In this document: positions 14,237-64,000 of the stretch, one piece after another
Layout: the number at the start of each line of letters is the position of its first letter
Numbering within the stretch: position 1 is the stretch's first letter
From: Holophagales bacterium
GTDB taxonomy: Bacteria > Acidobacteriota > Thermoanaerobaculia > UBA5066
Length of the DNA: 64,000 nt
Reading direction: 5' to 3'
Assembly: GCA_016714815.1 (NCBI GenBank)
Contig: JADKBZ010000003.1
Location: forward strand, 544,038-608,037
The notes under the pieces: model-generated
What the model saw: only the letters and a program-made list of their open reading frames with translations
Databases searched by the model: none
What the model was told of the DNA's origin: nothing
Program-made: the position numbers and the translations under genes

Positions 14237-14287
14237 ACCGGGCACCCGCCGACGTCCGCGTTTACGCTTTCGTCACAGCCACCGGAA

Positions 14288-15286: not shown

Positions 15287-15287
15287 A

Positions 15288-16992: not shown

Positions 16993-17157
16993 GTGCGCTT
17001 CTCGAAGGGCCGCTCCTATCCTAGACCACGCCAGGCCGGCCCAGCCTCACCGCGCCACCCCGGGTGCGCCCGCCCGGGCAAACGAGACTCACCTCCGGCT
17101 TTCCACGAAGGGAAAGACGCGATAGGGTGCCCCTTCCGTTTAGCGGAGGAGGAAAGC

Positions 17158-33999: not shown

Positions 34000-34246
34000 C
34001 TCGATTCGGCGCGGAGCTTACGCGACGGAGGCCGATCCCGTTCTTCGCGTACCTGGCGGTTGCCGCATGGGCCCCTCTTTCGTCGGACCGCTTCCGGTCA
34101 TCGGCGCACTCCTCCTGCAGATGTGGGGTTTCGACGCGAAATCCCACGATGCGTCCCTTCTCCCCGGCGGCGAGCCCGATCTGGTCCTTCCTGATCTGGC
34201 CCTTCCTTGCGGGGTCGAGCAGACACCCCTATCCTCTCTCGCGCTG

Positions 34247-37200
34247 ATGAGAGGCCTCACTTCCCTCCTCCTGGCCGTCGTCCTCGGGATTTCCCTTCGC
34301 GCCGCCGCCGACACCTACGACACCCACACCCTCGTGGCCGTCACGACCCGCGGCGACGCCGACGTCCGCGCGCTTCGCGACGCCGGAGCCGACGTCGTCG
34401 GGCGAAAAGGGAACGTCTACAAGGCGCTCCTGACGCCCGGGCAGCTGGAGAAGCTGACCGCACAGGGCCTGCAGATCGAGGTCCTCCGGGCCGAGATGGA
34501 CGCGGACCGGAAGCGCTGGGCCGAGAACGACGCCGCCTCGCGGGCGAACCTCGCCACCGCCTACTACACGGCCTCGAAGTTCGACCTGGTCAGCCCGCCG
34601 GCGGGGAGCCTGATGGAGCACCTTCTCCAGCAGTACAACGCCCACCCCGGCATCACCCGGCTCTACAACCTCGGCGCCACCCAGGACGGCGCGTACGACG
34701 TCATCGCAATGAAGGTCTCGAAGAACCCCGACGCCGTCGAGGCCGAGCCGAAGATCCGGATCTACGGGAACATCCACGGGGACGAGAAGGGGGGCTGCAT
34801 GGTCGCCTCCGACGTCCTCGACACGATCCTCGCCGGGTACGCCGCCGTCCCCCAGGACGCCACCGCGAAGAAGCTCGTGGACGAGTCGGAGATCTGGTTC
34901 ATCCCGATGGGGAACCCCTACGGCAACGCCCACAACCAGCGCGGCAACGTGAACGGCGTCGACCTGAACCGGAACTTCTGGGGGCCCTCCGGGTCCGACG
35001 CACCCCCCGCCTGGTCGCAGAAGGAGACCCAGATCATCCGCGACCTGACGGAGACGGCGACCGCCGACCACGGCAAGAAGCGGTTCACGACCTCGATCTC
35101 CTTCCACGAGGGGGAGGTCTGCCTCAACTCCATCTGGAACTACACGTCCGCCGCGCCGTCCGACGAGCCGCTCTTCTGGGCCACGCGCAGCGGCGGGAAC
35201 GTCACGCTCGCGGCCGACGGCCTCGCGAAGGCCTACCAGGACGGCGTCACGACACCCGGCTTCTGGTACACGAACGGCTACGACTGGTACCAGACCAGGG
35301 GCGACACGAACGACTGGTCGTACGGTGCGTGGAGCGCTCTCGACACGACGATCGAGCTGAACTCGATCAAGGCGCCCCCCGCCGCGCAGATCCCCACCTA
35401 CTGCGCCCAGCACCGGCAGGCGGTGCTGAACTACATGCTCAAGACGTTCCAGGGGGTCCACGGCGTGATGACCGACCAGTCGTCGGGGGCGCCGCTCGAC
35501 GGGACCGTCTCCGCCACGTGCACGGCATCCTCGACGGTCGCCGTCCCGCACGCCTACCAGGCGATCTACACCGACCCGGTGGCGGGCGACTTCCACCGCG
35601 TCCTGCTGCCCGGCACCTACACGATCACCTGCAAGGCGCCGGGGTACGTCGACACGGTCATCCCCGGCGTCGTGGTGACCGCCGACTCGAAGACCTCGTG
35701 CAACTGCCCCATGACGACGCCGTGCACGAACAATCCGACCGCGGTGAACGTCGCCCCGGCCGGACCGCTCGTCCTCTGCCCCGGGACCGGGCAGACCCTC
35801 ACCGCGAACGTCACCGGGGGGACCGGGCCTTTCACGTACCAGTGGTACGACGGCGCGTCCGCCATCCCCGGCGCAGAGGACCCGACCTACTTCGCCAATG
35901 ACGCCGGCGCCCACTCCTACAGCTGCAAGGTGACCGGCAGCGGCTGCACGGGCGGGATCACCGACCCGACGCCGTCACAGGTGACCTGGCAGGCGGCCCC
36001 GGCCTTCGCCGGCGCCACCTCCGTCACGACCCCCGGGAGCGCTCTCTGTACCCTCACGGTGGGCTGGAGCGCCGCATCGAGCGCCTGTCCCGGAACGGTG
36101 ACCTACAAGGTCTACCGTTCCACCACCTCTCCCGTCTCCGTCGGTCCCGCCAGTCTCGCCGCCTCGGGCCTGACGGGGACGAGCTACGACGACACGAGCG
36201 CCCTCGCGAACGGAGCGCGCTACTACTACGTCGTCCGCGCCGTGAGCGGCGCGGGGGTCGAGGACGCAAACACCGTCGAGAGGAGCGCAATCCCCGCTGG
36301 GCCGCTCGTGACCGGGGACTGGATCGCGGGGGCCGAGACGGGCGGTCCCGCGCTGACTCTCAACGCGCCCTGGGGCCTTTCCACGACCTACAAGCGGACG
36401 GGGACGAGCAGCTACTCGACGGGGTCGGGAGGGACGTACGCGGACGGAGCCTGTGGCGGGCTGACCACTCCCCCGCTCGTTCTCGGCGCCGGTTCCGTCC
36501 TCACCTTCCACCACATCTACTCCACGGAGACCGGCTACGACGGCGGACGGGTGGAGATTTCGACGAACGGGGGAGGCTCCTGGGCCCCCCTGACGCCTTC
36601 GCCGGCATATCCCGGGAACATCATCCACACCACGGCCTGCGGGTGGTCGAACCCGACTCCCTGCTACATCGGCGACTCCTCCGGGTATCCGGCGACGTGG
36701 CAGCTCGCGACGATCAACCTCGCGGCCTGGGGCGGCCAGACGGCTCTCCTCCGGTGGAACTTCACGACGGACACCAGCCAGGATGGCTCCCTGGCCAACC
36801 CCGGCTGGTACGTGGACGACATCAAGGTCACCGGCGTCCAGGTGCCCGGCCCGTGCTCGGGCGCGGCCACGGCGCTCTCCTTCCACGAGCTCCCCCCGTG
36901 CCGGGTCATCGACACGCGCGGCGCGACCGGGCCTCTCGGCGGGCCGGTCCTGGCCGCCGGCATCTCGGTGCGGACCTTCCCCGTGACGGGAACCTGCGGC
37001 ATCCCGGCCACGGCGAAAGCTCTCTCGGTGAACCAGACCGTGACCGAGCCCGCCGCAACCGGCTTCCTCCGCGTCTACCCGGGCGACCTGACCGGCGCGC
37101 AGGTCCCGATCACGAGCGCGGTCAGTTTCTCGGCTGGAAAGACCCGCGCGAACAACGGGATCCTCGGCCTCGCCGGAAACGGGAACGGGACGATCGCGGT

Positions 37201-37264
37201 CGAGAACGACGCCGTCGGCGGAACGGTCCACTTCATCCTGGACGTCAACGGATACTTCGAGTAG
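34247..37264 (+). CDS. Secreted M14 zinc carboxypeptidase with Fn3/Ig-like and MAM-like domains and a C-terminal PPCRxxDTR...LDVNGYFE module
   Basis: Signal peptide; M14 motifs (IHGDEKGG, NPYG, NRNF, HEGE); two Fn3-like domains (YKVYRSTTSP..); LLRWNF..GWYVDDIKV; C-terminus PPCRVIDTRGA...CGIPATA...TRANNGILGL...HFILDVNGYFE. Confidence 0.8.
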   Translation: MRGLTSLLLAVVLGISLRAAADTYDTHTLVAVTTRGDADVRALRDAGADVVGRKGNVYKALLTPGQLEKLTAQGLQIEVLRAEMDADRKRWAENDAASRANLATAYYTASKFDLVSPPAGSLMEHLLQQYNAHPGITRLYNLGATQDGAYDVIAMKVSKNPDAVEAEPKIRIYGNIHGDEKGGCMVASDVLDTILAGYAAVPQDATAKKLVDESEIWFIPMGNPYGNAHNQRGNVNGVDLNRNFWGPSGSDAPPAWSQKETQIIRDLTETATADHGKKRFTTSISFHEGEVCLNSIWNYTSAAPSDEPLFWATRSGGNVTLAADGLAKAYQDGVTTPGFWYTNGYDWYQTRGDTNDWSYGAWSALDTTIELNSIKAPPAAQIPTYCAQHRQAVLNYMLKTFQGVHGVMTDQSSGAPLDGTVSATCTASSTVAVPHAYQAIYTDPVAGDFHRVLLPGTYTITCKAPGYVDTVIPGVVVTADSKTSCNCPMTTPCTNNPTAVNVAPAGPLVLCPGTGQTLTANVTGGTGPFTYQWYDGASAIPGAEDPTYFANDAGAHSYSCKVTGSGCTGGITDPTPSQVTWQAAPAFAGATSVTTPGSALCTLTVGWSAASSACPGTVTYKVYRSTTSPVSVGPASLAASGLTGTSYDDTSALANGARYYYVVRAVSGAGVEDANTVERSAIPAGPLVTGDWIAGAETGGPALTLNAPWGLSTTYKRTGTSSYSTGSGGTYADGACGGLTTPPLVLGAGSVLTFHHIYSTETGYDGGRVEISTNGGGSWAPLTPSPAYPGNIIHTTACGWSNPTPCYIGDSSGYPATWQLATINLAAWGGQTALLRWNFTTDTSQDGSLANPGWYVDDIKVTGVQVPGPCSGAATALSFHELPPCRVIDTRGATGPLGGPVLAAGISVRTFPVTGTCGIPATAKALSVNQTVTEPAATGFLRVYPGDLTGAQVPITSAVSFSAGKTRANNGILGLAGNGNGTIAVENDAVGGTVHFILDVNGYFE

Positions 37265-48341: not shown

Positions 48342-50092
<1,751 letters not shown>

Positions 50093-50096
<4 letters not shown>

Positions 50097-51103
50097 CCGA
50101 CCTGGATCTCCCTCACGTTCGTCGACCGCCAGTCGGGCGTTCCGAGACCGCGCGCGGCGGCCTTCTCGAAGTAGGCGGGAAGCAGCTCGCCCTTGCGCTC
50201 GAGGAGCTCGTCCCACCCGAAGGCGTCGGCGGCGAGCGAGTCGGTCGAGGCGATGAGCGTCCTCCCCTCCTTCACGTCCGAAAGGCTCCCGCCCGTCGGT
50301 CCGCTCCGCCAGAGGACGCGCGTTCCGTCGAGGACGACGAACGTCGGCCGGAGCATCAGGGCGAGGTCCGCGATGATCCCGTGGATGTCCTGGTGGAACT
50401 GGTTGCGGCGGCCGCCGAGGAGGCCGTACCAGTTCTTCGTCGTCATCGACGCGCGGCAGAGGTTGTGGTCCTTCACCGGCGCGACGCCGATCACCTTCGT
50501 CACCCCCTGGAAGGGACGCCAGAAGAAGGGCCAGCGGGCGATGTGCGTGGCGCCGGGGGTCTCGAGCATCCGGAAGTCCGAGGCCGTCGGGAGATAGACC
50601 TCCGAGCCCGCGTCGACGGCGGCACGCTGGACGCCGCTTCGGGCGAAGCAGGCCGCGGGCGACTCGATCGGGTTGTCGGCAACGCGCACCTCGGCCGCCC
50701 CCGCCTCGCGGCAGAGCCTGACGAGTGCGGCGACGACCTCGGGGTTCGACGTCGCGCCGAGAGGGGCCGACCGCTCGAAGGCGACGTTCGGCTTGACGAG
50801 GACGACGTCGCCCGTCTTCACGAAGCGATGAATCCCGCCGATGGCGTCGACGGCCGCCTTCAGCATCGCGTCGACGTTCGCCCCGCGGGCCACGCCGAGG
50901 TGCGGCAGGACGCCCGACGGATCGACGGCGAAGCCCTTTTCAGGGAGGCGGAGGGAGGTGCCGCGCGGCTTGCCCCGCTCTCCGTCGGGGTCCTTCAGCG
51001 ACAGGGGCCAGCCGGACGGGGCGAGGGAGACGTAGCCGGCTCCGAGGGAGAGCCCCGCCACCGCGCCGAGCTGCTTGAGGAGGCGCCTCCGGTCCTCATT
51101 CAT
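50093..51103 (-). CDS. Tat-exported DUF362-domain protein
   Basis: Twin-arginine signal [20 protein letters not shown]; the rest matches my recollection of DUF362 (VLVKPNV..., VKDHNLC...). Confidence 0.65.
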
Positions 51104-52322
51104 CGGCGTCCCCTTTCGCGGCGGTGGGTGGGCCGGCCGCGGCCTTCTTCGCGACGTCGGGAGACAGGGCGAGGACCGCCCTCTCCAGCTTCGCGAGCGC
51201 TTCGGCCGCCTTCGCGACCTCCGGGGCGCCGCGGACACCGACGACGAACGTCCCGGCGGCTTTCGCACGCGAGAAGGCTCCCAGGTAGCGGTCCTTGATC
51301 CACGGCTCCCCCGCCACGACGGCCTTCTCGCCGTAGCTCAGGAACCCCTTCTCGAACTGCGCGGAGAGCGCCTTCGCCTTCCCTTCGTCTCCCGCGGGGA
51401 GGACGAAGAGCTCCGTCTCGCCGTCGTCGAGCGTCGCGGAGGAGACGTTCCTCGCAAAGCCGAACGAGAAGGCGCTCTCGGCGGTGTACTGGAGGCGGTC
51501 GGGCGGGAGGCCGAGGGCGTCGCCGAAGAGGGCGACCGTCCAGGGCTTCTCGCCGGCGGCGATCCCCCCTTCGAACGTCTTCCGAAGATGCTCCAGCTGC
51601 GCGACGACGGCGGGCGACTCGTCGGAGCCGATCGCTCGGACGTAGCTCGCTCCGCGCGCGACGAAGAGGGCATTGCGCGCGACGTACCAAGACGTGCCGC
51701 CGCCGCTCTTCGGTTTCGCCTCCGGGGTCTTCTCGGCGGAGAAGGCGCCGAGGGCGTTCTCGGGAGAGCCGAGGTCGTAGAGCTCGACGTCGACCACGGC
51801 GCCGGCCGGCCCGGAGAGGGTGACGAACGTGAGCGAACGGAACCCCCGCGCGAGGAAGAAGTCGGCGCGCCCGTTGATCTTCACGTAGAGGTTCTCGGCG
51901 TCGAAGCGGGCGAGCGGCCCCTCGCTCCACCCCTTTCCGGCGAGCGCGGCGGGAAGGACCCCGCGGTCGGGCGCGACGGGGAGGTTGCCGCGATCGGGCG
52001 CGACCGGCGGGACGGACGGGACGGCGTCGGGAGCCGATCGGGCTGGAGCCGCGGAGAGAGCGACCGGGGCCTCGGCCGGAGCGGTCGGAGTGGCCGGATC
52101 GGCGACGAGCGACGGGTCGGGGTGCGCCCCGCGCCAGGCGACCCACGCGGCGACGAGGGCGAGGAGGACGACGACCGCGGCCCCCGCCTTCGCCTCAGTC
52201 ACGGAGTACGTCTTGCGGAAGACCCGGAACGGGCGCGGGTTGAGGACGCGACGCTCGCTCGCGTCGAGGCCGGGGGGTGCGCTGCGAGCCGGGGCCGCTC
52301 CCATGGGCGGGCAGCGTAGCAC
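51096..52322 (-). CDS. Hypothetical membrane-anchored, probably periplasmic, protein (first gene of the redox cluster)
   Basis: Single N-terminal TM ([18 protein letters not shown]), Pro/Ala-rich linker, about 280-aa globular domain with no recognisable motif. Start (52322 or 52304) uncertain. Confidence 0.5.
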
Positions 52323-52380
52323 CGCCCGCCGTCGCCGATTCCGGCCCCCCGGCGGACCCGGTCCGGTCCGGCAGGCTCCC

Positions 52381-52410
52381 GGAAAGACGAAGGGCCCCCG
52401 TGGGGGCCCC
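52381..52410 (-). terminator. Terminator hairpin downstream of the giant beta-helix gene
   Basis: gggccccc-gt-gggggccc palindrome; on the minus strand it is followed by ttcgtctttcc. Confidence 0.5.
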
Positions 52411-52457
52411 TCGTGAACTCGGGTGCCGGACCCGCCGGGTCCGCGGGGCCCGGGGCC

Positions 52458-55400
52458 CTAGTCGATCGAGAACTCCATGAGCTCGACGGGGGTCGTCCCC
52501 GGTTCGGCGAGCGTCCAGTCGGAGAAGGAGGAGACGCCGGTGATGTTCGCCAGGTTCGACGCGGGCGTCACGGTCCCGCCGGGCGTCGCGTAGGCCGCGC
52601 CGTTGAACTTGTAGATGAGGAAATTGCCTTCCGTCGCCGTCACCGGGACGTCGCCGTCGAGATAGTGGAAGGTGAGGTCGGCGGTGAAGCCCGTTCCCGC
52701 GAGCGTCCAGTACCTCTGGAGAGTGAGGCTCGAGGGGAAGGCGAAGGGCTGCGGCCCCTGAACGGCCGTCACGGTCAGGTCGGCCGGAAAGGTGCCGGCG
52801 GTCGCGCTCGCATCGACGGGCGAGTAGCCGTTCGCGGTCCCGACCGGGAAGGTCGCCGCGCCGGCGCCGCAGAAGCTCTTCTTCACGTTCCCGGTGACGT
52901 AGTTCGTCGCCCCGGCACCGGTCACCGTCGCGTTGCAGCCGAGGGAGAGGGTGCTGGCCCCGGTGCCGAGGATCCCGGTCAGGGTGAGCTCGCTCGTGAC
53001 GGTCACGCCGCCGCCGAGGGTGTTGCCCGTCGTCCCGAGGGCGTTGTAGTAGGTCCCAGCCGGAATCGTCCCGGCGACCGCCTGGACGACCTCGTCCGCA
53101 CCGATGTCGGGGCTTCCCGCCGGGCGCGGATCTCCGTCGAGGTCGGCCACGACGCCGGCGAGCGGAGTCCCCTGGCCGAGAAGCGTGCTGGTCCCCAGCA
53201 GGTGGAGGTCCGTCGCCGACCGGAAGAGGGGGTCCACCGACATCGAGGCGGCGTCCTTCGCCGTCACCCCCTGCCATTGGGCGAGCGTTGCCAGGTCCGT
53301 GCCTCCCGCCGGAGCGATGCTGACGGCCCGACCGACCGCGAAAGATATGCCGGTCGTCACGAAGAGATCGTTGAAGTCGGAGGTGAGGTTCGCGAAGGTG
53401 GAGGAGCCGAGGCCGATGGCGTAGCTGAGGCCGCTCCCGGTCGTCTGGGTGTTCGAGAGGACGTTGCCCCTCACGTCGAGCGCCGGATCGGCTCCGTTGA
53501 CGGCGAGGGCGTACTGCCCCTGGTTCCCTCCCGTCGCCGTGCCGGACATCGATACCGAGTTGTCCCAGACCCGCGTCAGCGAGTCCGTCCCGTTCTCGAC
53601 GACGAAGATGCCGGCGCCGAAGTCCGGACTGGTCCCGTTGGAGAGGACGCCCGAGATGAAGTTGTTCGCGATGAGGTTCGTCCCGGTCGTGGCCGGGGTC
53701 AGGAGGATGCCGGCGGCCGAGTAAGTGGTCGTTTGCTGGACGGTGCCGATGACGTTGCCGGTCACGGTCGCGTTGCTGACCTCGGCTCCGCCGGCAACGA
53801 CGGCGTTGGACCAGCCGGCGAGGCCGCCGAGCGAGATGCCGAACACGTCATTCGACGCCGCCGACACGATCCCGCCGATGGTGTTGCCCGTCACCTGGAT
53901 CCCGTCCTCGTAAGCGACGAGGATCGCCCCCCTCCCGATGGCGGCCGTGCCGGTGTTGTTCAGGACGTTCTGCGTGTACACGTTGCCGGAGTTCTTGTTC
54001 GCGGCGCTCGCTCCCTGCGAGACGACGCCGTACTGGACGCTCCGCACGTCGCAGTTCTGCACGCGGTTTCCGTCGTTGTCGGTGCCGAGGCTGACGACGG
54101 CCGCCCCGCCGAAGACGATGCCGAAGAGCGTCGCGGCGCTCCCGCTCCCGATCACGACGAGGTTCTCGAGCGAGTCGTTCTGGGCCCCGCCGGCGCCGGA
54201 GCTGACGAGGAACACGGCGCTCGCCGTGCTCGTGTCGGCGTTCGTGAAGGTCAGGCTCCGGTCGGTCCCGCCCGACGCCGAGCCGTCGATCGTCACGCGG
54301 TCGGCCCCGTTCAGGCGGATCAGCGCCCGGGGCGAGGCCGTCGTGCTGTCACCTGCGACGCTGAAGGCGCCGCCCGAGGGACGGATCGTCAGCGTGTACC
54401 CGTTCCCGCCCTCCTCGACGAGCTGGTTCAGCGCGACGGCCCCCGTCTCGCCGCTCAGGCTGGAGGTGACGTTCACCGTGACGTCGCCCGTCAGGACGCC
54501 CGCGTTGAGCGCGGCGAAGAGGCCGCCCGGGTTCGTCAGGGAGGTGATCGATTCCGCCGACCCGACGTTCACCGACGAGGCGAAGGGAGCCACGATGGTG
54601 TAGGTGGCGAGCGTCGACGGCGGGGTCGTGATGGAGTTCACGCTGGATCCCGTCACGCCGACCGGGCTCGAGCCGAGGTTCGGCGCCGGCGCCAGGTCCT
54701 GAGCGACGACGAAGGTGTCGACGACGTCGCCCGTGCTCACCCCCCCGAGGAGCGAGTTGTCGACCGTACACGTCCAGGTGCCGTTCACCCCCGTGCCGCC
54801 CGCGAGGGCGCACTGGGTGGAGAAGTAGCTCCCGGCGTTCTTCCGGAAGTAGACGCGCGGCTGCGTCGCACCCGCGGTCGGGACGCCCGTGGCGTCGGAG
54901 ATCGTCGCGGTGAAGGTCCGGTTCACCGTGAGAGTCGTGTTCGCAAGAGGCGTGAAGGTGACGAGCGGGGCGAGGATGTCGAGCGGCACCCCGTCGAACT
55001 CGTCCGCGCCGATGTCGGGGAAGACCGCCCCCCCGTTGACCGAACCCGCCGGACCCGGGCGGGTCTGGAGGTCGTAGTCGGTCGTGATTCCGGCGATCAC
55101 CGCACCGCCGGACTCGATGACCGTCGGCGCGACGCCCATGTTCAGGTGCAGGTCGCTTGCGGCGTTCACGTAGGTGACGCCGATCCCGGAAAAGCTGCTC
55201 GCGTCGCTCGCGGACGCGGCCTGCCAGCCTCCGAAGGTCAGGGCCCCCCCCCACCAGCCGACCGACCCGGCGGCCGCGTTCAGCACGTTGTTGTTCGACG
55301 CGCCGGCTCCCCAGCCGGTGGCGGTCACCGTCGTGGCGCCGTAGTCGTTGGCGATCGCGAGGTGAGCGCCCGTCCCTCCGGAGCGCATGTTCGTGACGAC

Positions 55401-57449
55401 GTTGTTGCGGAAGTCGATCGTCTGCGTTCGCGCCGTCGTGGACGAAAAGTCCGACCGGACGAAGCCGAAGCTCGGCTGGGCCCCCGCGGCCACCGTCCCC
55501 TCGATGTTGATGGTGTTGTAATAGATCCTACTGATGGGGTCGGGCGTCGAGCCGTTGTTCGCCTGGATCCCGATGAAGATCGTGTTCGTCGCCTGCCCGG
55601 TGCCGAGCGAGATCATGTTGTTGACGACGGTGACGTCCGTCGTGCCGGACCGGATGATGATCCCGCCCACCGTCCCCGGGAGGGTCGTGCTCGTCGCCGT
55701 GCTGGCGTTGCTGAGGTCCCAGATCCGGTTCCTCGAGACCGTCGTGCTCGTCGCGTTCGCGAGGCCGATCCCGACGGTGAAGGCCCCCACCGTCCCCGTG
55801 TTCGTGCGGGAGATCGCCGAGATCGTGTTGCCGGAGACGACCGGGTTGAGGCCGGTGCCGACGGCGATCCCGACCGCCCCGGCCGCCCCGTTGGAGATCG
55901 TGGCGCTCGCGCTGTCGGTCGTGAGGTTCGTGATCGTGTTCCCGATGATGGCGAGCGCCGCCGTGCTCCCGGAAGCGCCGGGCGTCCAGATCCCCCTCAC
56001 GTAGCCCGACGTCCCGGTTCCGTAGGACGCGAGGTTCCGGATCGTGTTGCCTGTGACCGCGGTCGTCGTCGACGTCGAGGCCAGGTTGATTCCGGAAACG
56101 ACCGAGCTCCCCGTCGTCAGACCGCTCGTCCCGCCCCGCATGTTGAGTGCGGTCGCGTTTCCGATGGTGTTCCCCGAGATCGTCAGCGAGGTCGCGATTC
56201 CGGAGACGTTGATGCCAGAGACGCCCCCGGCGACGGCGGCGGTCACCCCGGACGACTGAAGCGCGCCGATCAGGTTGTTCTGGAGGACGACGATCCCCGT
56301 CGAGGAGGTGTGGATCCCGACCACGGCTCCCTGCGTCGTCGTCGGGGTCGCGGCGAGGCTCCCCGTCCCCGTCGTGGCGCCGATCGTGTTCGGCGTGACG
56401 GTGCCGACGTTCACGTCACCCGACGTTATGCTGATGCCGCAGAGGACGCCGTACGTCGTCGCGGCGCCGCTCGACGTGCCGAGCGTGATCGCGGCGACGG
56501 TGTTTCCCTGGACGGACGTCGGGGTCGCGTTTCCGACGCCGAGCTCGATCCCGATGAACCGGGTGGCGATCGTCCCCGTCATCGCGGTAACGCCCGTGCC
56601 GGCGGAGTCGGCCCCGCCGACGACGTTCGAGCTGACCGTGTGGCCGCTCCCCGAGAGGATCTGGATGCCGCGGTGGGTGTTGGCCGTCGTGTAGGTCCGC
56701 GTCCCCGTCTGGTAGATCCGGTTCGCGCTGACCGTCCAGCCCGTGTTGTTCGCCCCGACGAGGATGCCGACGGAGACCGTCGACGCGCTGAACGAGTCGG
56801 AGACGTTGGAGCCCTGGATCGCGTTCCCGGAATTCTCGGCGCCGGCGCTCCCGATCGAGAGGATCCCGTTCGTGGCGAGGTTCGCCCCCGCCGGCCCGAC
56901 GTTGCATAGAGAGACGGTGTTGCCGTCGTTGCCCGTCGTCGTGCCGGTGGAGAAGAGGATCGTCCCCGACGTGACGCTCGTCGACGACCCGAGCAGCGTC
57001 GCGTTCGTGACGGTGTTGCCCGTCGCGTCGTTGACGAAGCGGATCGTCGAGGCGCCCGTGGCGGCGCTCGTGTTCGAGATTGTCAGCCCGTTGCCGCCCG
57101 TGCCGAGACCGTCGATCGTCACGGCGTCCGCGCCGTTTAGGTCGACGAGCGGCCCGGCCACGGCGCCGGAGACCGTCCGGAGGGCGCCGCCCGATGGAGC
57201 CACGAGAATCGTCGTGTAGAGCGCGCCGCCGGAGCCGCTCGCGTTCAGGGCGGCCGAGGCGGCTTCCGTCGTGTCGCCGGTCAGGCTGACCGTGATTGCC
57301 CCCTGGTGGGTCCCCAGGTTGACCGCGTCGAACGCGTCTTTCACGGTCGCGTACGTGGACGGCCCCGTCGTCCCGGCGGTCGCCGTCACCGACACCTGGG
57401 CGGCCGCGCCCGCGCCGACGAGCAACGAGGCGAGCAGCAGGGACGTCAT
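52458..57449 (-). CDS. Giant secreted right-handed parallel beta-helix repeat protein (1663 aa, adhesin/polysaccharide-lyase-like) ending in the PVELMEFSID tag
   Basis: Signal peptide MTSLLLASLLVGAGAAAQ; many NxxIxGN-type beta-helix repeats; Thr/Gly/Ser-rich; extreme C-terminus GTTPVELMEFSID. The tracked ORF start is over-extended; the ATG is at 57449. Confidence 0.8.
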   Translation of the reverse strand: MTSLLLASLLVGAGAAAQVSVTATAGTTGPSTYATVKDAFDAVNLGTHQGAITVSLTGDTTEAASAALNASGSGGALYTTILVAPSGGALRTVSGAVAGPLVDLNGADAVTIDGLGTGGNGLTISNTSAATGASTIRFVNDATGNTVTNATLLGSSTSVTSGTILFSTGTTTGNDGNTVSLCNVGPAGANLATNGILSIGSAGAENSGNAIQGSNVSDSFSASTVSVGILVGANNTGWTVSANRIYQTGTRTYTTANTHRGIQILSGSGHTVSSNVVGGADSAGTGVTAMTGTIATRFIGIELGVGNATPTSVQGNTVAAITLGTSSGAATTYGVLCGISITSGDVNVGTVTPNTIGATTGTGSLAATPTTTQGAVVGIHTSSTGIVVLQNNLIGALQSSGVTAAVAGGVSGINVSGIATSLTISGNTIGNATALNMRGGTSGLTTGSSVVSGINLASTSTTTAVTGNTIRNLASYGTGTSGYVRGIWTPGASGSTAALAIIGNTITNLTTDSASATISNGAAGAVGIAVGTGLNPVVSGNTISAISRTNTGTVGAFTVGIGLANATSTTVSRNRIWDLSNASTATSTTLPGTVGGIIIRSGTTDVTVVNNMISLGTGQATNTIFIGIQANNGSTPDPISRIYYNTINIEGTVAAGAQPSFGFVRSDFSSTTARTQTIDFRNNVVTNMRSGGTGAHLAIANDYGATTVTATGWGAGASNNNVLNAAAGSVGWWGGALTFGGWQAASASDASSFSGIGVTYVNAASDLHLNMGVAPTVIESGGAVIAGITTDYDLQTRPGPAGSVNGGAVFPDIGADEFDGVPLDILAPLVTFTPLANTTLTVNRTFTATISDATGVPTAGATQPRVYFRKNAGSYFSTQCALAGGTGVNGTWTCTVDNSLLGGVSTGDVVDTFVVAQDLAPAPNLGSSPVGVTGSSVNSITTPPSTLATYTIVAPFASSVNVGSAESITSLTNPGGLFAALNAGVLTGDVTVNVTSSLSGETGAVALNQLVEEGGNGYTLTIRPSGGAFSVAGDSTTASPRALIRLNGADRVTIDGSASGGTDRSLTFTNADTSTASAVFLVSSGAGGAQNDSLENLVVIGSGSAATLFGIVFGGAAVVSLGTDNDGNRVQNCDVRSVQYGVVSQGASAANKNSGNVYTQNVLNNTGTAAIGRGAILVAYEDGIQVTGNTIGGIVSAASNDVFGISLGGLAGWSNAVVAGGAEVSNATVTGNVIGTVQQTTTYSAAGILLTPATTGTNLIANNFISGVLSNGTSPDFGAGIFVVENGTDSLTRVWDNSVSMSGTATGGNQGQYALAVNGADPALDVRGNVLSNTQTTGSGLSYAIGLGSSTFANLTSDFNDLFVTTGISFAVGRAVSIAPAGGTDLATLAQWQGVTAKDAASMSVDPLFRSATDLHLLGTSTLLGQGTPLAGVVADLDGDPRPAGSPDIGADEVVQAVAGTIPAGTYYNALGTTGNTLGGGVTVTSELTLTGILGTGASTLSLGCNATVTGAGATNYVTGNVKKSFCGAGAATFPVGTANGYSPVDASATAGTFPADLTVTAVQGPQPFAFPSSLTLQRYWTLAGTGFTADLTFHYLDGDVPVTATEGNFLIYKFNGAAYATPGGTVTPASNLANITGVSSFSDWTLAEPGTTPVELMEFSID

Positions 57450-57715
57450 CGTCGCGAGACGCACGCTCTTCGAGTTCAGGGATTCCCCGGCTGTTTGTCG
57501 CACTCTTCCTCCGCGGTCACTCGGCCCCTCCAATCCCACGTTCAACGGGAAGAGCCAGTCGGCAGCGAAAGACGAAGGGGACTACCGAGCTGGTCTGGCC
57601 GTGGGAAGGAAAGCCCGGGTGACGAACGACGCACGCTATCGCGCAGGGGAAGACCCGTCAAACCGCCGGATCTCGACGACTGCCCGTCCGAAAGGCCGCC
57701 GCCGCCGATAATCGA

Positions 57716-58498
57716 ATGTCCCATCGCTCCTCGTTGCGGGGTCCGACCGTGAACCTGATTCTTCTCTTTCCCGACGATTTCGCCTCCGACGGCACCGTCC
57801 GGCTCACCGGCCGCCGGGCCCGCCACGTCCACGAGGTCCACCGTGCCCGCGTCGGGGAGAGCCTCACCGTCGGCCGCGTCAACGGCCTCGTGGGAAAGGG
57901 GACGGTGCTCGCCATCGCGCCGGACGAGGTGCGCCTCTCGGTCCTCCTGTCGGACCATCCGCCGCCGCCGACCGGCCTCGACCTGCTGCTGGCGATGCCC
58001 CGGCCCAAGGTGCTGCGCAGGGTCCTCCAGTCCGCCGCGTCGCTGGGGGCTCGCCGCATCGTCCTCGTCGCCGCCCAGCGGGTCGAGAAGAGCTACTTCG
58101 ACACACCGTTTCTCGAGCCGGCCGAAATCGAAAGGAACCTCGTCCTCGGGCTGGAGCAGGCGCGCGACACCGTCCTCCCCGAAGTGGTGGTCCGCAGGCG
58201 CTTCCGCCCCTTCGTCGAGGACGAGGTCGAGGGCCTCTGGCCACGGGCGACCTCCACCCGGCTGGTGGCCCACCCCGCCGCCGCGCGAGGGCCCCAGTGT
58301 TTCGACCTCGGTACGGCCGGCTCCCCGGCCGTTTTGGCAATAGGACCGGAGGGGGGCTGGATTCCGTTCGAGCTCGAGCTTCTCGAAGCCCACGGCTTCC
58401 GTCCGTTCGACCTGGGGCGCAGGATCCTCCGCGTGGAGACCGCGGTCCCCTTCGCCTTCGGTCAGGTCCAACTCCTGCGATCGCGGGACGGCGGGTAG
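57716..58498 (+). CDS. rsmE: 16S rRNA (uracil1498-N3)-methyltransferase RsmE
   Basis: RsmE pattern (N-terminal PUA-like domain, C-terminal SPOUT domain with GPEGGW and ILRVETA). The true start is probably the GTG near 57749 (VNLILLFPDD). Confidence 0.75.
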   Translation: MSHRSSLRGPTVNLILLFPDDFASDGTVRLTGRRARHVHEVHRARVGESLTVGRVNGLVGKGTVLAIAPDEVRLSVLLSDHPPPPTGLDLLLAMPRPKVLRRVLQSAASLGARRIVLVAAQRVEKSYFDTPFLEPAEIERNLVLGLEQARDTVLPEVVVRRRFRPFVEDEVEGLWPRATSTRLVAHPAAARGPQCFDLGTAGSPAVLAIGPEGGWIPFELELLEAHGFRPFDLGRRILRVETAVPFAFGQVQLLRSRDGG

Positions 58499-58737
58499 CC
58501 AGACCCTGGAGCCGACGATCTGGCAGTAATCTGTCGTCCTCACCTGTCCTGCCCTTGAAATCCGAGGTCTCCCGACCCATTGTTTGAATAATTCGGATTG
58601 TCTCAGGGGCGAGGGAGTACGCAGGAACAGGCTTTACCGAACGCCGTAAGGGTGTGCCGCAGGTTGGCGGTGACGGTCGGATTCTGGACGCGTCGCATCC
58701 GCGCCCGGGAACCAGCACAGATCCAATAGGAGATTCC

Positions 58738-60411
58738 GTGACAATTCTCCCGAACAGGTGTTTACTGAACGTTTCGGCCTGTCTTCTCCTGATCGCGTCT
58801 CTCGACGTCGCCGCACAGGGTCTGGTCCCTCTGAGGAACTGGGCCGTTCCGCAGGCAAGCGGCGTGGCCCGCCCCTCCGCGATCGGCACTCTCGGCGACG
58901 CCTCCGGACCGGGCATTTTCATCCCCTTCACGCCGTGCCGGATGGTCGACACGCGCGGCGGCGGAGTCTGGACGGGAAGCTACGGTCCGCCGGCTCTCGC
59001 CGGGTCGAGCGCGCGGAGCTTCCCGATGACGAGCGCGAGCGGCCCGTGCCCAGGGATCCCGACCGGCGCGGCGGCGATCTCGCTGAACATCACGGTCGTC
59101 AACACCGCCGGCCCCGGCTTCATCATGATCTACCCGCAGGGGGGAGCGGTCCCGACGGTCTCGACGCTCAACTACAACGCCGGGCAGGTCCTCGGAAACG
59201 CGGCGATCGTCCCGATGAGCGCGACGGGCGGAATCACGGTCGTGGCCGGAGTGTCGGGGACCGACCTGATCCTCGACGTCAACGGCTACTTCATCAGCGG
59301 CCCGACGAGGCTCAACGACTGGGAGATGTTCAGCCTGGTCGGGTCCTACCCTGGAGTGCTGTTCAGCGTAGAGAACGACTACGTCGGACTCGATGGGATC
59401 GGTCGCGCTGGGCTATTCACCTCCCGCACGGACGTGGGCGATTCGGCGGCCCTGATGGGGCATGCCTTCGCGGACGCAGGCGTCACCCGGGGAGTCACAG
59501 GGCGAAACAGGAGCATCACCGACAACGCCTGCGGGGTGAGTGGCGAAGCCGTGGGCTCGGGGATGGTCTTCGGCGTGATAGGGAGGACCTCCAGCTCAGC
59601 CTCCTCCGCGGCTGGCGTTCTCGGGATTGCGGGCAATCCGGTCTACCCGAACAACGCCATCGCCTCCACCGTGGGAGTCCTCGGGACCAACACGACTGGC
59701 TCCGGGGTCCTCGGGAAATCCTCGACGGGCCGGCCGGTCCAGGGGTCCCGCGTCGACGCCACGACGGGCCTCGCGATCACCACGGGGATCCTCGGGTACA
59801 CGGCATCCATCGGCGTCTATGCCTTCGGAGACATGGCTGCCAGCGGCACCAAGTCCTTCATCGAGCCCCACCCGACCGACGCGTCGCGCCAGATCGCCTT
59901 CGTCGCCCTGGAAGGGCCCGAGGCCGGTACCTACTTCCGCGGCCGCGGACGGTTCGTCGGGAAGAGCGCGGTGATCCCGGTCCCCGAGGAGTTCCGGCTC
60001 GTGACCGAGGAGGAGGGGCTGACCGTCCAGATCACGCCCATCGGGGCCGTCGCGAGCGTCGGCGTGATGAGCGTCGACCTCCAGCAGATCGTCGTCGGGT
60101 CGACCCGCGACGTCGAGTTCAGCTACATCGTCCACGGCGTCCGGAAGAACTACGGCCAGTACGAGCCGATCCAGAAGAACACCGTCTTCGTGCCGGCGGG
60201 GCCCGACGCGAAGATGGACCCCTTCCCGGCACACATCCAGAGACGCCTCGTCGACCTCGGGATCTACAAGGCCGACGGGAGCGTCAACCTCGAGACGGCC
60301 GAGACGATGGGCTGGGCGCAGACGTGGCGGGAGGAGGCCGCGGCGGAACAGGCCGCCGCGGCGAAGGCGGCCGCGGAACGGGCCGTACTCCAGGACGGGC
60401 TTCGGCGTTAG
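58738..60411 (+). CDS. Secreted Gly/Thr-rich repeat protein, paralog 1 (N-terminal CRxxDTR...LDVNGYF module, Gly-rich middle, conserved C-terminal domain with Ala-rich helix)
   Basis: GTG at 58738 after aggag; signal peptide; N-terminal module PCRMVDTRGGG...CPGIP...NITVVNTAGPGF...LILDVNGYFI; C-terminal TGTKSFIEPHPTDASRQIAFVALEGPEAGTYFRG...WAQTWREEAAAEQAAAAKAA. Confidence 0.8.
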   Translation: MTILPNRCLLNVSACLLLIASLDVAAQGLVPLRNWAVPQASGVARPSAIGTLGDASGPGIFIPFTPCRMVDTRGGGVWTGSYGPPALAGSSARSFPMTSASGPCPGIPTGAAAISLNITVVNTAGPGFIMIYPQGGAVPTVSTLNYNAGQVLGNAAIVPMSATGGITVVAGVSGTDLILDVNGYFISGPTRLNDWEMFSLVGSYPGVLFSVENDYVGLDGIGRAGLFTSRTDVGDSAALMGHAFADAGVTRGVTGRNRSITDNACGVSGEAVGSGMVFGVIGRTSSSASSAAGVLGIAGNPVYPNNAIASTVGVLGTNTTGSGVLGKSSTGRPVQGSRVDATTGLAITTGILGYTASIGVYAFGDMAASGTKSFIEPHPTDASRQIAFVALEGPEAGTYFRGRGRFVGKSAVIPVPEEFRLVTEEEGLTVQITPIGAVASVGVMSVDLQQIVVGSTRDVEFSYIVHGVRKNYGQYEPIQKNTVFVPAGPDAKMDPFPAHIQRRLVDLGIYKADGSVNLETAETMGWAQTWREEAAAEQAAAAKAAAERAVLQDGLRR

Positions 60412-60495
60412 CAGGACCAGGCAGGCCAAACCGCCAGCGACCTCGCGACCGCTCCGGTCGCGGGGCCCGCCGGCTTCGCACATCGCGGAGGTTTC

Positions 60496-62382
60496 ATGAG
60501 ACATCCGGCCGGAAGGCGATTCTTCCTGGCGTTCGCAACGCTGACGCTGCTCCTTTCCGGGGCGGCTCAAGCCTCGGACCGGGTCCCGCTGAAGAACTGG
60601 GCCGTTCCACAGGCAACCTCGGGGTCGCGCCCGTCGACGCTCGGAGCTCTCGGGGACGCGGGCAACCCCGCGATCTTCGTGCCGTTCGCACCGTGCCGGA
60701 TGGTCGACACCCGTGGCGGCGGGGTCTTCACCGGGAGCTACGGACCGCCCGCTCTCGCGGCGTCGACGGCGCGGGACTTCGAGATGACGAGCGCGAGCGG
60801 CCCCTGCCCCGGGATTCCGTACGGCGCGACGGCGATCTCCCTCAACGTCACGGTCGTCAACACCGCCGGTCCCGGCTTCATCATGATCTATCCGCAGGGT
60901 GGAGCCGTCCCGACGGTCTCGACGCTGAACTACAACGCCGGGCAGGTCCTGGCCAACGCGGCGATCGTCCCGATGAACTCGTCGGGAGGGATCACCGTCG
61001 TCGCCGGAGTGTCGGGAACCGACCTGATTCTCGACGTGAACGGGTACTACATCAACTCGCAGGGGAACCTCACCCCGGGAGAGTACTTCCACCTTGCGGG
61101 GTCAACGCCGGGCTCGCTCATCAGGGGCGAGAACTGGACCTTGGGCGGAACTGGCGGGGCATTCTATGCCGGCGGCGCGGGCAGCACTGGCGTGCGTGGA
61201 GAGGCATTGACGACGGGAGTAAAGGGGACCGCGCTGGGCTCTGCCAACGGCTCCGTCGGAGTTTCAGGCCTCGCCAATTCGTCGTCGGGACAGGTGTACG
61301 GGGTCTACGGCCAATCCATGAGCGCGACGGCAGGTACGTCCGGCGTCTTCGGGGAGGCCACGGGGTCGGGGGAGGTGTACGGGGTCTTCGGCCGAACTGC
61401 GAGCGCGACGATGGGTGCCTCCGGCGTGGTCGGGGAGGCCACGGGTTCGGGAGAGGTGTACGGGGTCAACGGCCGAACTGCGAGCGCGACGACGGGTGCG
61501 TCCGGCGTAGTCGGGGAGGCCACGGGTTCGGGAGAGGTGTACGGGACCGTCGGGCGTTCGACCAGCTCGGCGACGGGCTCGGCAGGCGTACTCGGCTCGG
61601 CAGGGAGTCCGGGGTACCCGAACAACGTCTCCACCGGCGTCGTGGGAGTCCTCGGCACCACCACGAGCGGCTACGGGGTCTTCGGCAAGGCCACCGCAAC
61701 GGGAATCGGAGTCCGGGGCGCGAAGGTCGACGCCACGACCGGCGTCCCCACCGCCTCCGGGGTCCTCGGCTACCTGACGTCCTGGGGCGTCTACTCCTAT
61801 AACGACCTGGGGGCGACCGGTACGAAGAGCTTCGTCGAGCCGCACCCGACCGACGCCTCGCGCCAGATCGTCTACGTCGCCATGGAAGGCCCGGAGGCCG
61901 GAACCTACTTCCGCGGGCGCGGCCGTTTCGACGGGAAGAGCGCCGTCATCGTCGTCCCGGAGGACTTCCGCCTCGTCACGGAGGAAGAGGGGCTGACGGT
62001 CCAGATCACGCCGATGGGCCGGGCCACCACCTGGGTGAATCGCGCCGGGCTCGACGCCATCGAGGCGGAGAGCACGGCGGACGTGGAGTTCTCCTATCTC
62101 GTCCAGGGCGTACGGAAGAACTACAAGGGGCACGAGCCGATCCAGAAGAACACCCTCTTCGTCCCGATGGGATTCGACGCCCGGATGGAGCCGTACCCGG
62201 CCCACATCCAGAAGCGCCTGGTCGACCTCGGGATCTACAAGGCCGACGGGAGCGTCAACCTCGAGACGGCCGAGAGGATGGGCTGGGCGCAGACGTGGCG
62301 CGAGGAGGCGGCGGCGGAGCTGGCCGCCGCGGCGAAGGCGGCACGGGAACAGGACGTTCGCAGGGAAGCGATTCAGCGCTAG
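60496..62382 (+). CDS. Secreted Gly/Thr-rich repeat protein, paralog 2 (expanded 27-aa repeats)
   Basis: Same architecture as paralog 1, with about 3.5 copies of an 81-bp (27-aa) in-frame tandem repeat (SGVxGEATGSGEVYGVxGRTASATxGA). Confidence 0.85.
   Translation: MRHPAGRRFFLAFATLTLLLSGAAQASDRVPLKNWAVPQATSGSRPSTLGALGDAGNPAIFVPFAPCRMVDTRGGGVFTGSYGPPALAASTARDFEMTSASGPCPGIPYGATAISLNVTVVNTAGPGFIMIYPQGGAVPTVSTLNYNAGQVLANAAIVPMNSSGGITVVAGVSGTDLILDVNGYYINSQGNLTPGEYFHLAGSTPGSLIRGENWTLGGTGGAFYAGGAGSTGVRGEALTTGVKGTALGSANGSVGVSGLANSSSGQVYGVYGQSMSATAGTSGVFGEATGSGEVYGVFGRTASATMGASGVVGEATGSGEVYGVNGRTASATTGASGVVGEATGSGEVYGTVGRSTSSATGSAGVLGSAGSPGYPNNVSTGVVGVLGTTTSGYGVFGKATATGIGVRGAKVDATTGVPTASGVLGYLTSWGVYSYNDLGATGTKSFVEPHPTDASRQIVYVAMEGPEAGTYFRGRGRFDGKSAVIVVPEDFRLVTEEEGLTVQITPMGRATTWVNRAGLDAIEAESTADVEFSYLVQGVRKNYKGHEPIQKNTLFVPMGFDARMEPYPAHIQKRLVDLGIYKADGSVNLETAERMGWAQTWREEAAAELAAAAKAAREQDVRREAIQR
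61294..61600 (+). repeat. In-frame 81-bp tandem repeat array (about 3.5 units) inside paralog 2
   Basis: Units begin at 61294, 61375, 61456 and 61537 (partial), with over 90% identity between units. Confidence 0.8.
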
Positions 62383-62466
62383 CAGGACCAGGCGAGTCAG
62401 ACCGCCGGCGGCCTCGCAACCGCTCTGGTCGCGAGGCCCGCCGGCTTTCAATGCTGCGGAGGTTTC

Positions 62467-64000
62467 ATGAGACATCCTGCCGGAAGGCGATTCTTCTACG
62501 CTCTCGCACCGTTGACGCTCCTCCTGTCTTGGGCAGCCGAGGCCGGAGAGCAGGTCCCGCTGAAGAACTGGACCGTTCCACAGGCGACCTCCGGGTCGCG
62601 CTTGTCGGCTCTCGGTACCGTTGGCGATGCGGGAAACCCCGCCATCTTCATCCCGTTCACGCCGTGCCGCATGGTCGACACGCGCGGCGGCGGGGTCTGG
62701 ACGGGGACCTACGGCCCGCCGGCCCTCGCCGGGTCGAGCGCGCGGAGCTTCCCGATGACGAGCGCGAGCGGCCCCTGCCCCGGGATCCCGACGGGCGCGG
62801 CGGCGGTCTCGCTGAACATCACGGTCGTCAACACCGCCGGTCCCGGCTTCATCATGATCTATCCCGAGGGGGGAGCGGTCCCGACGGTCTCGACGCTCAA
62901 CTACAACGCCGGGCAGGTCCTCGGAAACGCGGCGATCGTCCCGATGAGTGCGACGGGAGGGATCACGGTGGTGGCCGCGGTCTCCGGCACCGACCTGATC
63001 CTCGACGTGAACGGGTACTTCATCGGCAGCCCGGCGTCGCTGAACGACAACGAGGGCCTCCGGCTGGAGGGGTCGTACGGTGGAGGGCTGATCGCTGGAT
63101 TCAACAACTACACCGGGACCAACAACAGCTACGGCGGGTTCTTCGTTTCCTACAACTCTCAGAAGGGAGGCGGCGTCTACGGAGGCGTCGCGGCAGCGAC
63201 CGGTGCCACGGCCGGAGTTCGCGGGGTGACCGAGAGCGCCACGGACGGCGCGAGCGGAGTTCTCGGCGAGACGTTCGCCACCACCGGCATGGCTTTCGGA
63301 GTAAAGGGAACCACGCAAAGCACGTCCTCTTCCGCCGCGGGTGTCCTCGGGGTTGCCGGCTCCCCGGTCTATCCGAACAACGCCATCGCCGCCACCGTGG
63401 GAGTCCTCGGGACCAATACGAGCGGCTTCGGCGTCCTCGGGAAATCCTCGACGGGCCGGCCCGTCCAGGGCTCCCGCGTCGACGCCACGACGGGACTCGC
63501 CGTCACCACCGGAATCCTCGGCTACACGGCGTCCATCGGCGTCTACGCCTTCGGGGACATGGCGGCCAGCGGAACGAAGTCGTTCATCGAGCCTCACCCG
63601 ACCGACGCGTCGCGCCAGATCGTCTACGTCGCCATGGAAGGCCCGGAGGCCGGAACCTACTTCCGCGGCCGCGGGCGTTTCGAGGGAAAGACCGCGGTCA
63701 TCGGCGTGCCGGAGGACTTCCGCCTCGTCACCGAGGAGGAAGGGCTGACGGTCCAAATCACCCCGATCGGGCGGGCAACGGCCGTCGGCGTGACCAGCAT
63801 CGACCTCGACAGGATCGTCGTCGAGGCGACCCGCGACGTGGAGTTCTCCTATCTCGTGCAGGGTGTAAGAAGGAACTACAAGGGGCACGAGCCAGTCCAG
63901 AAGAACACCGTGTTCGTTCCGATGGGGCCCGACGCGAGGATGGATCCCTACCCCGCTCACCTCCAGAAGCGCCTCGTCGACCTCGGGATCTACAGGGCCG
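62467..64000 (+). CDS. Secreted Gly/Thr-rich repeat protein, paralog 3 (3' end partial, runs off the window)
   Basis: ATG at 62467 after ggagg; signal peptide MRHPAGRRFFYALAPLTLLLSWAAEA; the N-terminal module is about 93% identical at DNA level to paralog 1; the same C-terminal domain starts at about 63560. Confidence 0.8.
   Translation, partial: MRHPAGRRFFYALAPLTLLLSWAAEAGEQVPLKNWTVPQATSGSRLSALGTVGDAGNPAIFIPFTPCRMVDTRGGGVWTGTYGPPALAGSSARSFPMTSASGPCPGIPTGAAAVSLNITVVNTAGPGFIMIYPEGGAVPTVSTLNYNAGQVLGNAAIVPMSATGGITVVAAVSGTDLILDVNGYFIGSPASLNDNEGLRLEGSYGGGLIAGFNNYTGTNNSYGGFFVSYNSQKGGGVYGGVAAATGATAGVRGVTESATDGASGVLGETFATTGMAFGVKGTTQSTSSSAAGVLGVAGSPVYPNNAIAATVGVLGTNTSGFGVLGKSSTGRPVQGSRVDATTGLAVTTGILGYTASIGVYAFGDMAASGTKSFIEPHPTDASRQIVYVAMEGPEAGTYFRGRGRFEGKTAVIGVPEDFRLVTEEEGLTVQITPIGRATAVGVTSIDLDRIVVEATRDVEFSYLVQGVRRNYKGHEPVQKNTVFVPMGPDARMDPYPAHLQKRLVDLGIYRA

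Follow-up and report, generated by a model that had tools for sequence, protein, structure and literature searches.

The last 5.3 kb of a 64,000-nucleotide stretch of DNA from a Holophagales bacterium (assembly GCA_016714815.1, contig JADKBZ010000003.1, positions 544,038 to 608,037 of the forward strand; this whole stretch is called the window below and has a G+C content of ~70%) are occupied by a tandem array of paralogous genes for secreted proteins with a long, glycine-rich stalk. According to other assemblies of the same species, the array consists of four same-strand paralogs, which encode proteins of 557, 628, 556, and 557 amino acids (aa). The preliminary description of this DNA, which was made without database searches, had noticed three such genes, the third of them running off the end of the window. 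These genes lie where it placed them, but the total number of copies is four; its basic observation is real and is confirmed and extended here. We lean towards the view that the four genes code for Sec-exported, homotrimeric fibers with a binding domain at each end, which would serve as lectins or adhesins and resemble the MAT fibers of Bdellovibrio bacteriovorus.

In such a fiber, the C-terminal half, made up of the distal part of a stalk with recurring GVxG motifs and of a β-sandwich, would be descended from, or share a common ancestor with, the tip of a phage tail fiber. It would form a trimeric jellyroll of the lectin type, like those with which R-pyocin and phage fibers bind surface polysaccharide. 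The N-terminal module (N-module), a β-sandwich of the disulfide type, would probably tie the fiber to a glycan on the cell's own envelope or on the substrate. Between these end domains the glycine-rich stalk would act as a spacer of variable length, and the array as a whole would constitute a small repertoire of fibers that diversifies chiefly in the stalk. The trimeric state, the surface location, the binding of glycans, and the identity of the cell-proximal end are what we infer as most likely from the observations described in the following sections.

Architecture of the Array and its Proteins

The four proteins can be aligned over their whole length and have the same order of parts: a signal peptide, a segment with the motif NWxVP, the N-module of ~130 aa with two cysteines, a stalk rich in Gly, Ser, Thr, and Ala, and a C-terminal region of ~190 aa. 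The latter comprises a β-sandwich (C-domain) and a C-terminal extension. The genes, the spacers between them, and the parts of the proteins are located in the window as follows.

58738..60411, + strand: paralog 1, complete, 557 aa; identical to P0005 / IPP07_13625 of a Holophagales metagenome-assembled genome (MAG)
58738..58818, + strand: Sec-type signal peptide of paralog 1, about aa 1-27, read from the sequence
58837-58851, + strand: NWxVP motif of paralog 1, aa 34-38; equivalent positions in paralogs 2 and 3
58900..59307, + strand: N-module of paralog 1, aa 55-190; two-Cys β-sandwich, modeled at a pLDDT of 86-97
59308..59847, + strand: stalk of paralog 1, aa 191-370; Gly/Ser/Thr-rich, with G[VILMF]xG motifs
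59848..60147, + strand: β-sandwich of the C-domain of paralog 1, aa 371-470
60148..60408, + strand: C-terminal extension of paralog 1, aa 471-557
60412..60495, + strand: spacer 1, 84 nt; GC-rich hairpin at 60441-60467, then GGCTT, then GGAGG 4 nt before the ATG
60496..62382, + strand: paralog 2, complete, 628 aa; stalk of 255 aa
61114..61221, + strand: tract of the paralog 2 stalk that varies between strains, aa 207-242; contains 18 of the 45 differences from GCA_016722225.1
61284-61545, + strand: 81-bp tandem repeat in the stalk of paralog 2, in frame (27 aa); 3.2 copies, 87% match
62383..62466, + strand: spacer 2, 84 nt; same hairpin as in spacer 1, at 62410-62436
62467..64000, + strand: paralog 3, truncated at the end of the window after 511 codons; 556 aa in the homologous loci L001 and L002

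Signal peptides were judged by eye from a basic n-region, a hydrophobic core, and an AxA-like site. Within the NWxVP motif, W35 and P38 are shared by 90% or more of the 119 family members compared; the segment, which is modeled at a pLDDT below 50, could be a sorting or docking peptide. An AlphaFold model of full-length paralog 1, based on 119 sequences, reached a pLDDT of 81.6. It contains a β-sandwich at aa 60-186, a confidently modeled stretch at aa 187-291 that is unassigned by DSSP, short strands up to aa 370, and a second β-sandwich at aa 385-469, followed by a small helical part and a terminal helix of 30 residues. Alignment and model together bear out the shared architecture, the two conserved cysteines, and the Ala-rich terminal helix, all of which had been proposed beforehand.

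None of the three window proteins matched a Pfam family at E ≤ 1. Scans of the paralog proteins against NCBIfam and PADLOC gave no match either, and sequence searches of the PDB, performed with a single protein and with profiles A1 and A4, returned nothing meaningful. Pfam and NCBIfam detected no YadA anchor, head, or stalk domains and no SLH domains, so that an assignment to the YadA-like adhesins or S-layer proteins is not supported.

The C-Domain and its Relation to Phage Fibers

It is the C-domain that connects the paralogs to phages. Its motif in paralog 1 is GTKSFxEPHPTD...LEGPEAGTYFRGRG...LTVQITPIG, and the domain is conserved, with F374, E392, R401, G402, and P416 among the invariant residues. 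It matches phrog_17490 (2e-12) and phrog_28536 (2e-11), both of unknown function in PHROGs; the former match spans aa 269-470 and therefore takes in the distal stalk. A tblastn search yielded 36 phage records. In the four phage matches that were inspected, the matched region is C-terminal and ends 11-38 residues before the stop codon. The proteins concerned are gp19 of Arthrobacter phage Mufasa8, a minor tail protein, a tail-fiber-like protein of Flavobacterium phage immuto, and cyanophage proteins encoded beside a gp5 baseplate hub gene. They have the motif K(S/N)FxIxHP...EGPE...Y.RG...LP...TV.LTPIG in common with the C-domain. The phage proteins of phrog_17490 and phrog_28536 are true sequence homologs of the distal stalk and the β-sandwich; unlike the paralogs, however, they possess neither a signal peptide nor an N-module nor a C-terminal helical extension.

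Structural comparison leads to the same class of proteins. In a model of aa 340-557 alone (pLDDT 85.9), the C-domain forms a jellyroll sandwich superimposable on 6CU2, 6CXB, 4MTM, 4RU4, 2W94, and 2CCV, and its fold is that of the R-pyocin fiber "foot" (discoidin-like, H-type lectin). These neighbors largely coincide with those published for the foot domain, which is trimeric and has been proposed to bind polysaccharide via its distal loops (PMC6363177). The foot and its relatives, namely gp53 of phage AP22 and the tailspikes LKA1 gp49 and phi297 gp27 (PMC6363177), have no detectable sequence similarity to the paralogs. Further differences from the pyocin foot are the about 90 additional C-terminal residues that follow the sandwich in the paralogs, their export by the Sec system, and their location away from tail or baseplate genes. 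The preliminary description had also suspected a link to phage tail fibers. Genuine homology and fold similarity do exist, but they reside in the β-sandwich and the distal stalk and thus in another domain than the peptidase S74-like one that had been proposed.

An independent argument for a trimer comes from relatives of the C-domain whose stalks contain collagen repeats and which consist of an N-terminal domain, collagen, a GVxG stalk, and the C-domain:

L064 299-2056: collagen-stalked relative in a Brocadiaceae MAG
L037 9491-11053: collagen-stalked relative in a Gammaproteobacteria MAG
L048 8960-10810: collagen-stalked relative in a second Gammaproteobacteria MAG

Upstream of the GVxG stalk, Pfam Collagen was matched with 2e-30 in L064 and 3e-7 in L037, and the match in L048 (9e-6) narrowly misses the Pfam cut-off.

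The C-Terminal Extension

The extension consists of a small α/β part and an Ala-rich helix of ~30 aa, both modeled at a pLDDT of 92-98. P486, L504, G508, Y510, G514, N517, G525, W526, and W530 are conserved, and the entire extension is absent from the phage homologs. The resemblance to the intramolecular chaperone domains of the peptidase S74 type, which had been weakly suggested on account of the TDASR segment and the terminal helix, is supported neither by Pfam nor by motif or fold. Peptidase_S74 (PF13884) had no Pfam match at E ≤ 1 in the three proteins. The motif SDxxxK, which contains the catalytic Ser and Lys of S74 (PMC10769870), is not present; the segment reads TDASRQ in the paralogs, with TDAxKxI or TDPSKxI as the family consensus, and is located inside the first strands of the β-sandwich in the model. 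Moreover, none of the S74 structures 3GW6, 4UW8, and 8ONC was among the fold matches listed. What the paralogs share with the S74 domains of phage K1F endosialidase, the T5 fiber, and Bd3182 is the C-terminal position on the fiber and a terminal helix.

A role of the extension in assembly is possible. More specifically, aa 471-557 might serve in cis as a folding chaperone or cap, to be removed by cleavage once the trimer has formed; this would make them a functional analog of S74 that is unrelated to it by descent. The extension is conserved and is lacking in the phage homologs, which stop shortly past the matched β-sandwich; its long terminal helix could build a three-helix bundle, and the same place is held by S74 domains in MAT and phage fibers (PMC10769870). 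However, in addition to the missing Pfam, motif, and fold evidence for S74, no candidate nucleophile/base pair was identified, and the extension is modeled as packed on the sandwich with the high pLDDT expected of an integral domain. We therefore regard cleavage of a dedicated chaperone as improbable.

The N-Module

The N-module is characterized by the motifs PCRxVDTR ... VSTLN ... ANAAI ... DxNGYF. Its DNA is 92.1% identical between paralogs 1 and 3 over 407 nt, in good agreement with the ~93% over ~400 bp given previously. With the model of full-length paralog 1, the PDB structures that scored best were C-terminal domains of the B. bacteriovorus fiber Bd2133 (8OND/8OK3; E 2e-5 to 7e-5), with a TM score of 0.54 on the 121-residue tip. 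This match disappears with the model of aa 340-557 alone and is therefore assigned by elimination to the N-module; that it could be a property of the C-domain is ruled out by the same result.

Two further copies of the N-module, with 43 and 38% identity to that of paralog 1, respectively, are found at the ends of other proteins encoded in the window:

36881-37258, + strand, in open reading frame (ORF) 33938-37264: C-terminal end of an M14 carboxypeptidase multidomain protein
14852-15217, + strand, in ORF 14288-15286: C-terminal end of a Vgb_lyase-like propeller protein

The N-module is therefore a portable domain of secreted proteins. It also occurs alone, and three copies in a row form the C-terminus of β-propeller-repeat proteins of about 1090 aa in Bryobacterales (L071 7916-11185; similarly L072, L075, L079, L081, and L083). 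These triple modules recall cell-surface anchoring modules.

Comparison with the MAT Fibers of Bdellovibrio

All 21 MAT proteins possess a signal peptide, a conserved β-rich domain of ~130 aa, a trimeric fiber, and a variable adhesive tip with the S74 or another fold, and their N-domain has been proposed to hold the fiber on the cell (PMC10769870). The paralogs resemble these proteins (Bd2133, Bd3182, and others; PMC10769870) in their layout, with a signal peptide, a β-rich N-domain of ~130 aa, a presumably thin fiber, and a putative adhesive domain of phage type at the C-terminus, and in the many paralogs per genome. Owing to this MAT-like layout, we read them as working like MAT fibers. There are, however, marked differences. 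The fold of the Bd2133 tip is located at the N-terminus in the paralogs. Their stalk is a GVxG repeat of 13-14 residues instead of a β-prism/β-helix, their length is ~560 instead of ~1000 aa, and they lack an S74 domain. MAT proteins vary the tip, whereas the paralogs keep both ends and vary the stalk, and the Holophagales host is not known as a predator.

Several points weigh against the interpretation as surface-bound, trimeric lectin fibers. The trimeric state is assigned by analogy and from the collagen repeats of distant relatives rather than of these paralogs. A repertoire that diversifies its receptors, like that of the MAT proteins or of phage receptor-binding proteins, would be expected to vary the tip, but here the end domains are conserved and the stalk is variable. 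The match between the N-module and Bd2133 is moderate, and β-sandwich folds are widely recurrent; the likeness to the MAT N-domain, in turn, concerns the layout, in which a signal peptide is followed by the β-sandwich at aa 60-186. The foot-like domain is not the end of the chain, and because ~90 conserved residues including the long helix come after it, the geometry of a "distal tip" is uncertain. Finally, no lipobox, C-terminal sorting signal, or conserved neighbor gene was found that would indicate a route from the periplasm to the surface of a diderm cell.

Stalk Variation and Recombination

Across the paralogs the stalk measures 181-255 aa. Its G[VILMF]xG motifs recur for the most part every 13-14 residues, and the proximal part of the stalk (aa ~196-290) is unalignable between paralogs. 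For paralog 2, about 3.5 in-frame repeats of 81 bp had been reported; this corresponds to the 3.2 copies found here, or to about four if a degenerate unit extending to 61608 is included. Variation among strains also affects this stalk. The 45 differences between the window and GCA_016722225.1 are clustered, and a tract of 110 nt is 14% divergent between the two strains, which are otherwise 99.6% identical. Its substitutions are in frame, alter 9 of 44 residues, and comprise all base types without a bias towards A. A donor of the tract was found neither in the window nor in the loci fetched for comparison.

Direct DNA repeats between the paralogs, at distances of 1.8-5.5 kb, reach 75-94% identity over 100-300 nt and contain exact matches of 36-82 nt. 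The DNA of the C-domain is less uniform than the near-identity claimed for it, with about 68-90% identity over most of the intervals compared and 93-99% only in local tracts. Of 151 informative sites, 108 group paralog 1 with 3 and paralog 2 with 4, and the array therefore arose from the duplication of a two-gene unit. In conflict with this tree, paralog 3 matches paralogs 4 and 2 at 96-99% over aa 378-408, which therefore represents a gene-conversion tract. Thus, the earlier suggestion that long direct repeats provide a substrate for recombination is upheld by the duplicated gene pair, the conversion tract, the exact matches, and the strain-variable tract. The best-supported explanation of these sequence patterns is that ordinary tandem duplication, gene conversion, and the exchange of short tracts diversify the array, above all in the stalk.

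Alternative Explanations

The preliminary description had gone one step further and considered the locus a possible variable surface cassette. In a programmed cassette for antigenic or phase variation, a single expressed copy would receive sequence from the others by directed, high-frequency recombination, so that the surface antigen changes. The direct repeats with their long exact matches, the conversion tract, the hypervariable center between conserved flanks, and the divergent 110-nt tract would all suit this idea, but other features make it very unlikely. Antigenic variation of the pilE/pilS or vlsE type requires silent, promoterless, or truncated donors, whereas no such donors exist here and all four copies are intact, full-length ORFs that carry individual ribosome-binding sites, start codons, and signal peptides. 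A comparison of the locus across related genomes showed the same gene order, copy number, and number of 81-bp repeats in four independent assemblies, and the family commonly occurs in arrays of similar, intact genes. Long inverted repeats of the type known from invertible elements were not seen; no screen of the window was made for genes of recombinases or reverse transcriptases. Since adenines are not specifically affected by the substitutions in the variable tract, these do not follow the pattern of a diversity-generating retroelement; a near-identical template copy was not present in the window or the fetched loci, with the same limit that no screen of the whole window for reverse transcriptase was made. 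If anything, even less probability attaches to the proposal that the genes encode tail fibers of a prophage, a tailocin, or an extracellular contractile injection system, which would be kept as alternative fiber genes. This would account for the homology to, and the fold shared with, phage and pyocin fiber tips and for the one family member situated beside VgrG/PAAR genes (locus L004, see below). However, every copy carries a Sec signal peptide, which fibers assembled on particles lack, and the neighbors of the array (rsmE, a gene for a large secreted protein, and a Fer4_5 gene) include no tail, baseplate, or capsid genes. Furthermore, a scan of 2.9 million viral contigs with family-specific patterns found no close relative, and other loci of the family lie among housekeeping genes.

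The proteins might also be structural fibers of the matrix or envelope, that is, an extracellular scaffold that cross-links exopolysaccharide in flocs via two lectin-like ends instead of recognizing foreign cells. Both end domains are conserved and lectin-like or similar to carbohydrate-binding modules, the length of the stalk varies, the genomes stem from wastewater and soil metagenomes, and the N-module also ends secreted enzymes in the manner of a retention or targeting module. Yet these indications are circumstantial, and such a scaffold would be compatible with the favored explanation, from which it differs in the ligand alone. As a separate explanation we consider it rather unlikely, albeit less so than a programmed cassette or tail fibers. 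We thus retain double-ended, Sec-exported lectin or adhesin fibers as the preferred interpretation of the array.

Genomic Context and Expression Signals

Paralog 4 (557 aa) lies outside the window, 3' of paralog 3, and the next gene encodes a Fer4_5 membrane protein. Upstream of the array are rsmE (57716-58498) and then, on the opposite strand, a gene for a secreted protein of 1695 aa (52458-57545, − strand). The latter protein is rich in Thr, Gly, Ser, and Ala, has a signal-like N-terminal segment and the C-terminal end ...PVELMEFSID, and matched nothing in Pfam or PADLOC. Synteny of its gene with the array extends to L001 and L003, and the gene holds 16 of the 45 differences from GCA_016722225.1, again in clusters (e.g., 7 within 57108-57182).

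The last 12 kb of the window (52001-64000) are 99.6-99.96% identical to contigs of the Holophagales MAGs GCA_020054605.1 and GCA_016722225.1, and over the 3.8 kb that a wastewater contig from ENA shares with the window the identity is 99.95%. No exact copy of a 22-mer from the spacer and the adjoining gene start was present in JGI metagenome contigs. The annotation of L003 (GCA_016722225.1) 12001-17156 splits paralogs 2-4 into pieces of 48-303 aa. Compared with the window, this sequence has single-base indels at window positions 61300 and 63165, which explain, at a minimum, the breaks in paralogs 2 and 3, and the fragmentation probably reflects assembly errors and not pseudogenes.

Paralogs 2-4 each start with ATG preceded by GGAGG at a distance of 4 nt. 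For paralog 1, the GTG at 58738 was taken as the start, because AGGAG is located 5 nt upstream and the same start is called in other assemblies; an alternative in-frame GTG farther upstream (58654-58737) would lengthen the protein by 28 residues and has a weaker ribosome-binding site. The conserved spacers of ~85 bp mentioned in the preliminary description are 84 nt long and alignable between copies. Every spacer has kept the GC-rich hairpin with a stem of 11-13 bp, followed by GGCTT(T), GGAGG, and ATG; the third copy is found at about 4005-4031 of L002. The folding energy of the hairpins is only modestly below that of shuffled sequence (z = -2.3, -2.1, and -0.1), and they were not flagged by a simple terminator scan because the U-tract is too short. 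The hairpin could be a leaky terminator or an mRNA-stabilizing element. A promoter scan found no sigma-70-like promoter, and Rfam detected no RNA family in 50000-64000.

Distribution of the Family

More than 1144 full-length homologs exist, all of them annotated as "hypothetical" and most of them from Holophagales and Thermoanaerobaculia, and species-representative genomes contain more than 565 loci. The source genomes come from wastewater and soil metagenomes. A characterized family that is kept in single copy by its relatives, with which the preliminary description had contrasted its proposal, is not what emerged: the family is uncharacterized, and intact arrays of 2-6 copies recur in relatives, where single copies are also common. 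One such single-copy member, P0014 (551 aa; L004 10001-11656, another contig of GCA_016722225.1), is encoded in divergent orientation beside genes for type VI secretion cargo (two VgrG genes, a DUF2169 gene, and a Tox-PAAR-like gene), an arrangement seen in one genome only.

The C-domain alone is far more widespread, with 5917 clusters (50% identity) at E ≤ 1e-3 and 436 at E ≤ 1e-30. In the best 150 of the 5917 clusters, the match is located at the C-terminal end of the protein or a few tens of residues from it. Combined with a stalk and without the N-module, the domain occurs in Planctomycetota, Gammaproteobacteria (including Rhodanobacteraceae), and Brocadiaceae. Some proteins of this kind have collagen G-X-Y or FG-GAP repeats upstream, and short forms of ~305 aa also exist. 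Searches of a set of 5.8 billion proteins with single domains retrieved short fragments for the most part, without any informative Pfam partner. In the literature library that was searched, nothing relevant came up on an earlier description of the family or of the Pam1 tailspike.

Significance

A broader interpretation, which we advance tentatively and hold to be clearly less probable than that of the four genes themselves, is that the array belongs to an undescribed, widespread class of domesticated phage receptor-binding proteins, with about 6000 clusters (50% identity) in Acidobacteriota, Planctomycetota, Gammaproteobacteria, and phages and without a Pfam model. Its members might be Sec-exported, "double-headed" trimeric lectin fibers, whose phage-type foot would be capped by a new cis-acting C-terminal assembly domain, and might provide free-living, non-predatory bacteria with a recombining repertoire for cell-cell or cell-matrix recognition. 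If the interpretation as fibers holds, fiber adhesins built from phage parts would not be peculiar to the predator Bdellovibrio but common in abundant, mostly uncultured phyla of soil and wastewater. Two large unannotated domain families, those of the N-module and the C-domain, would receive names and a testable function, and the proteins would become candidates for a role in the cohesion of flocs and biofilms or in the recognition of neighboring cells. The array would then also show, as a case from nature, how the stalk of a fiber is remodeled by tandem duplication and short conversion tracts while both of its end domains remain fixed.

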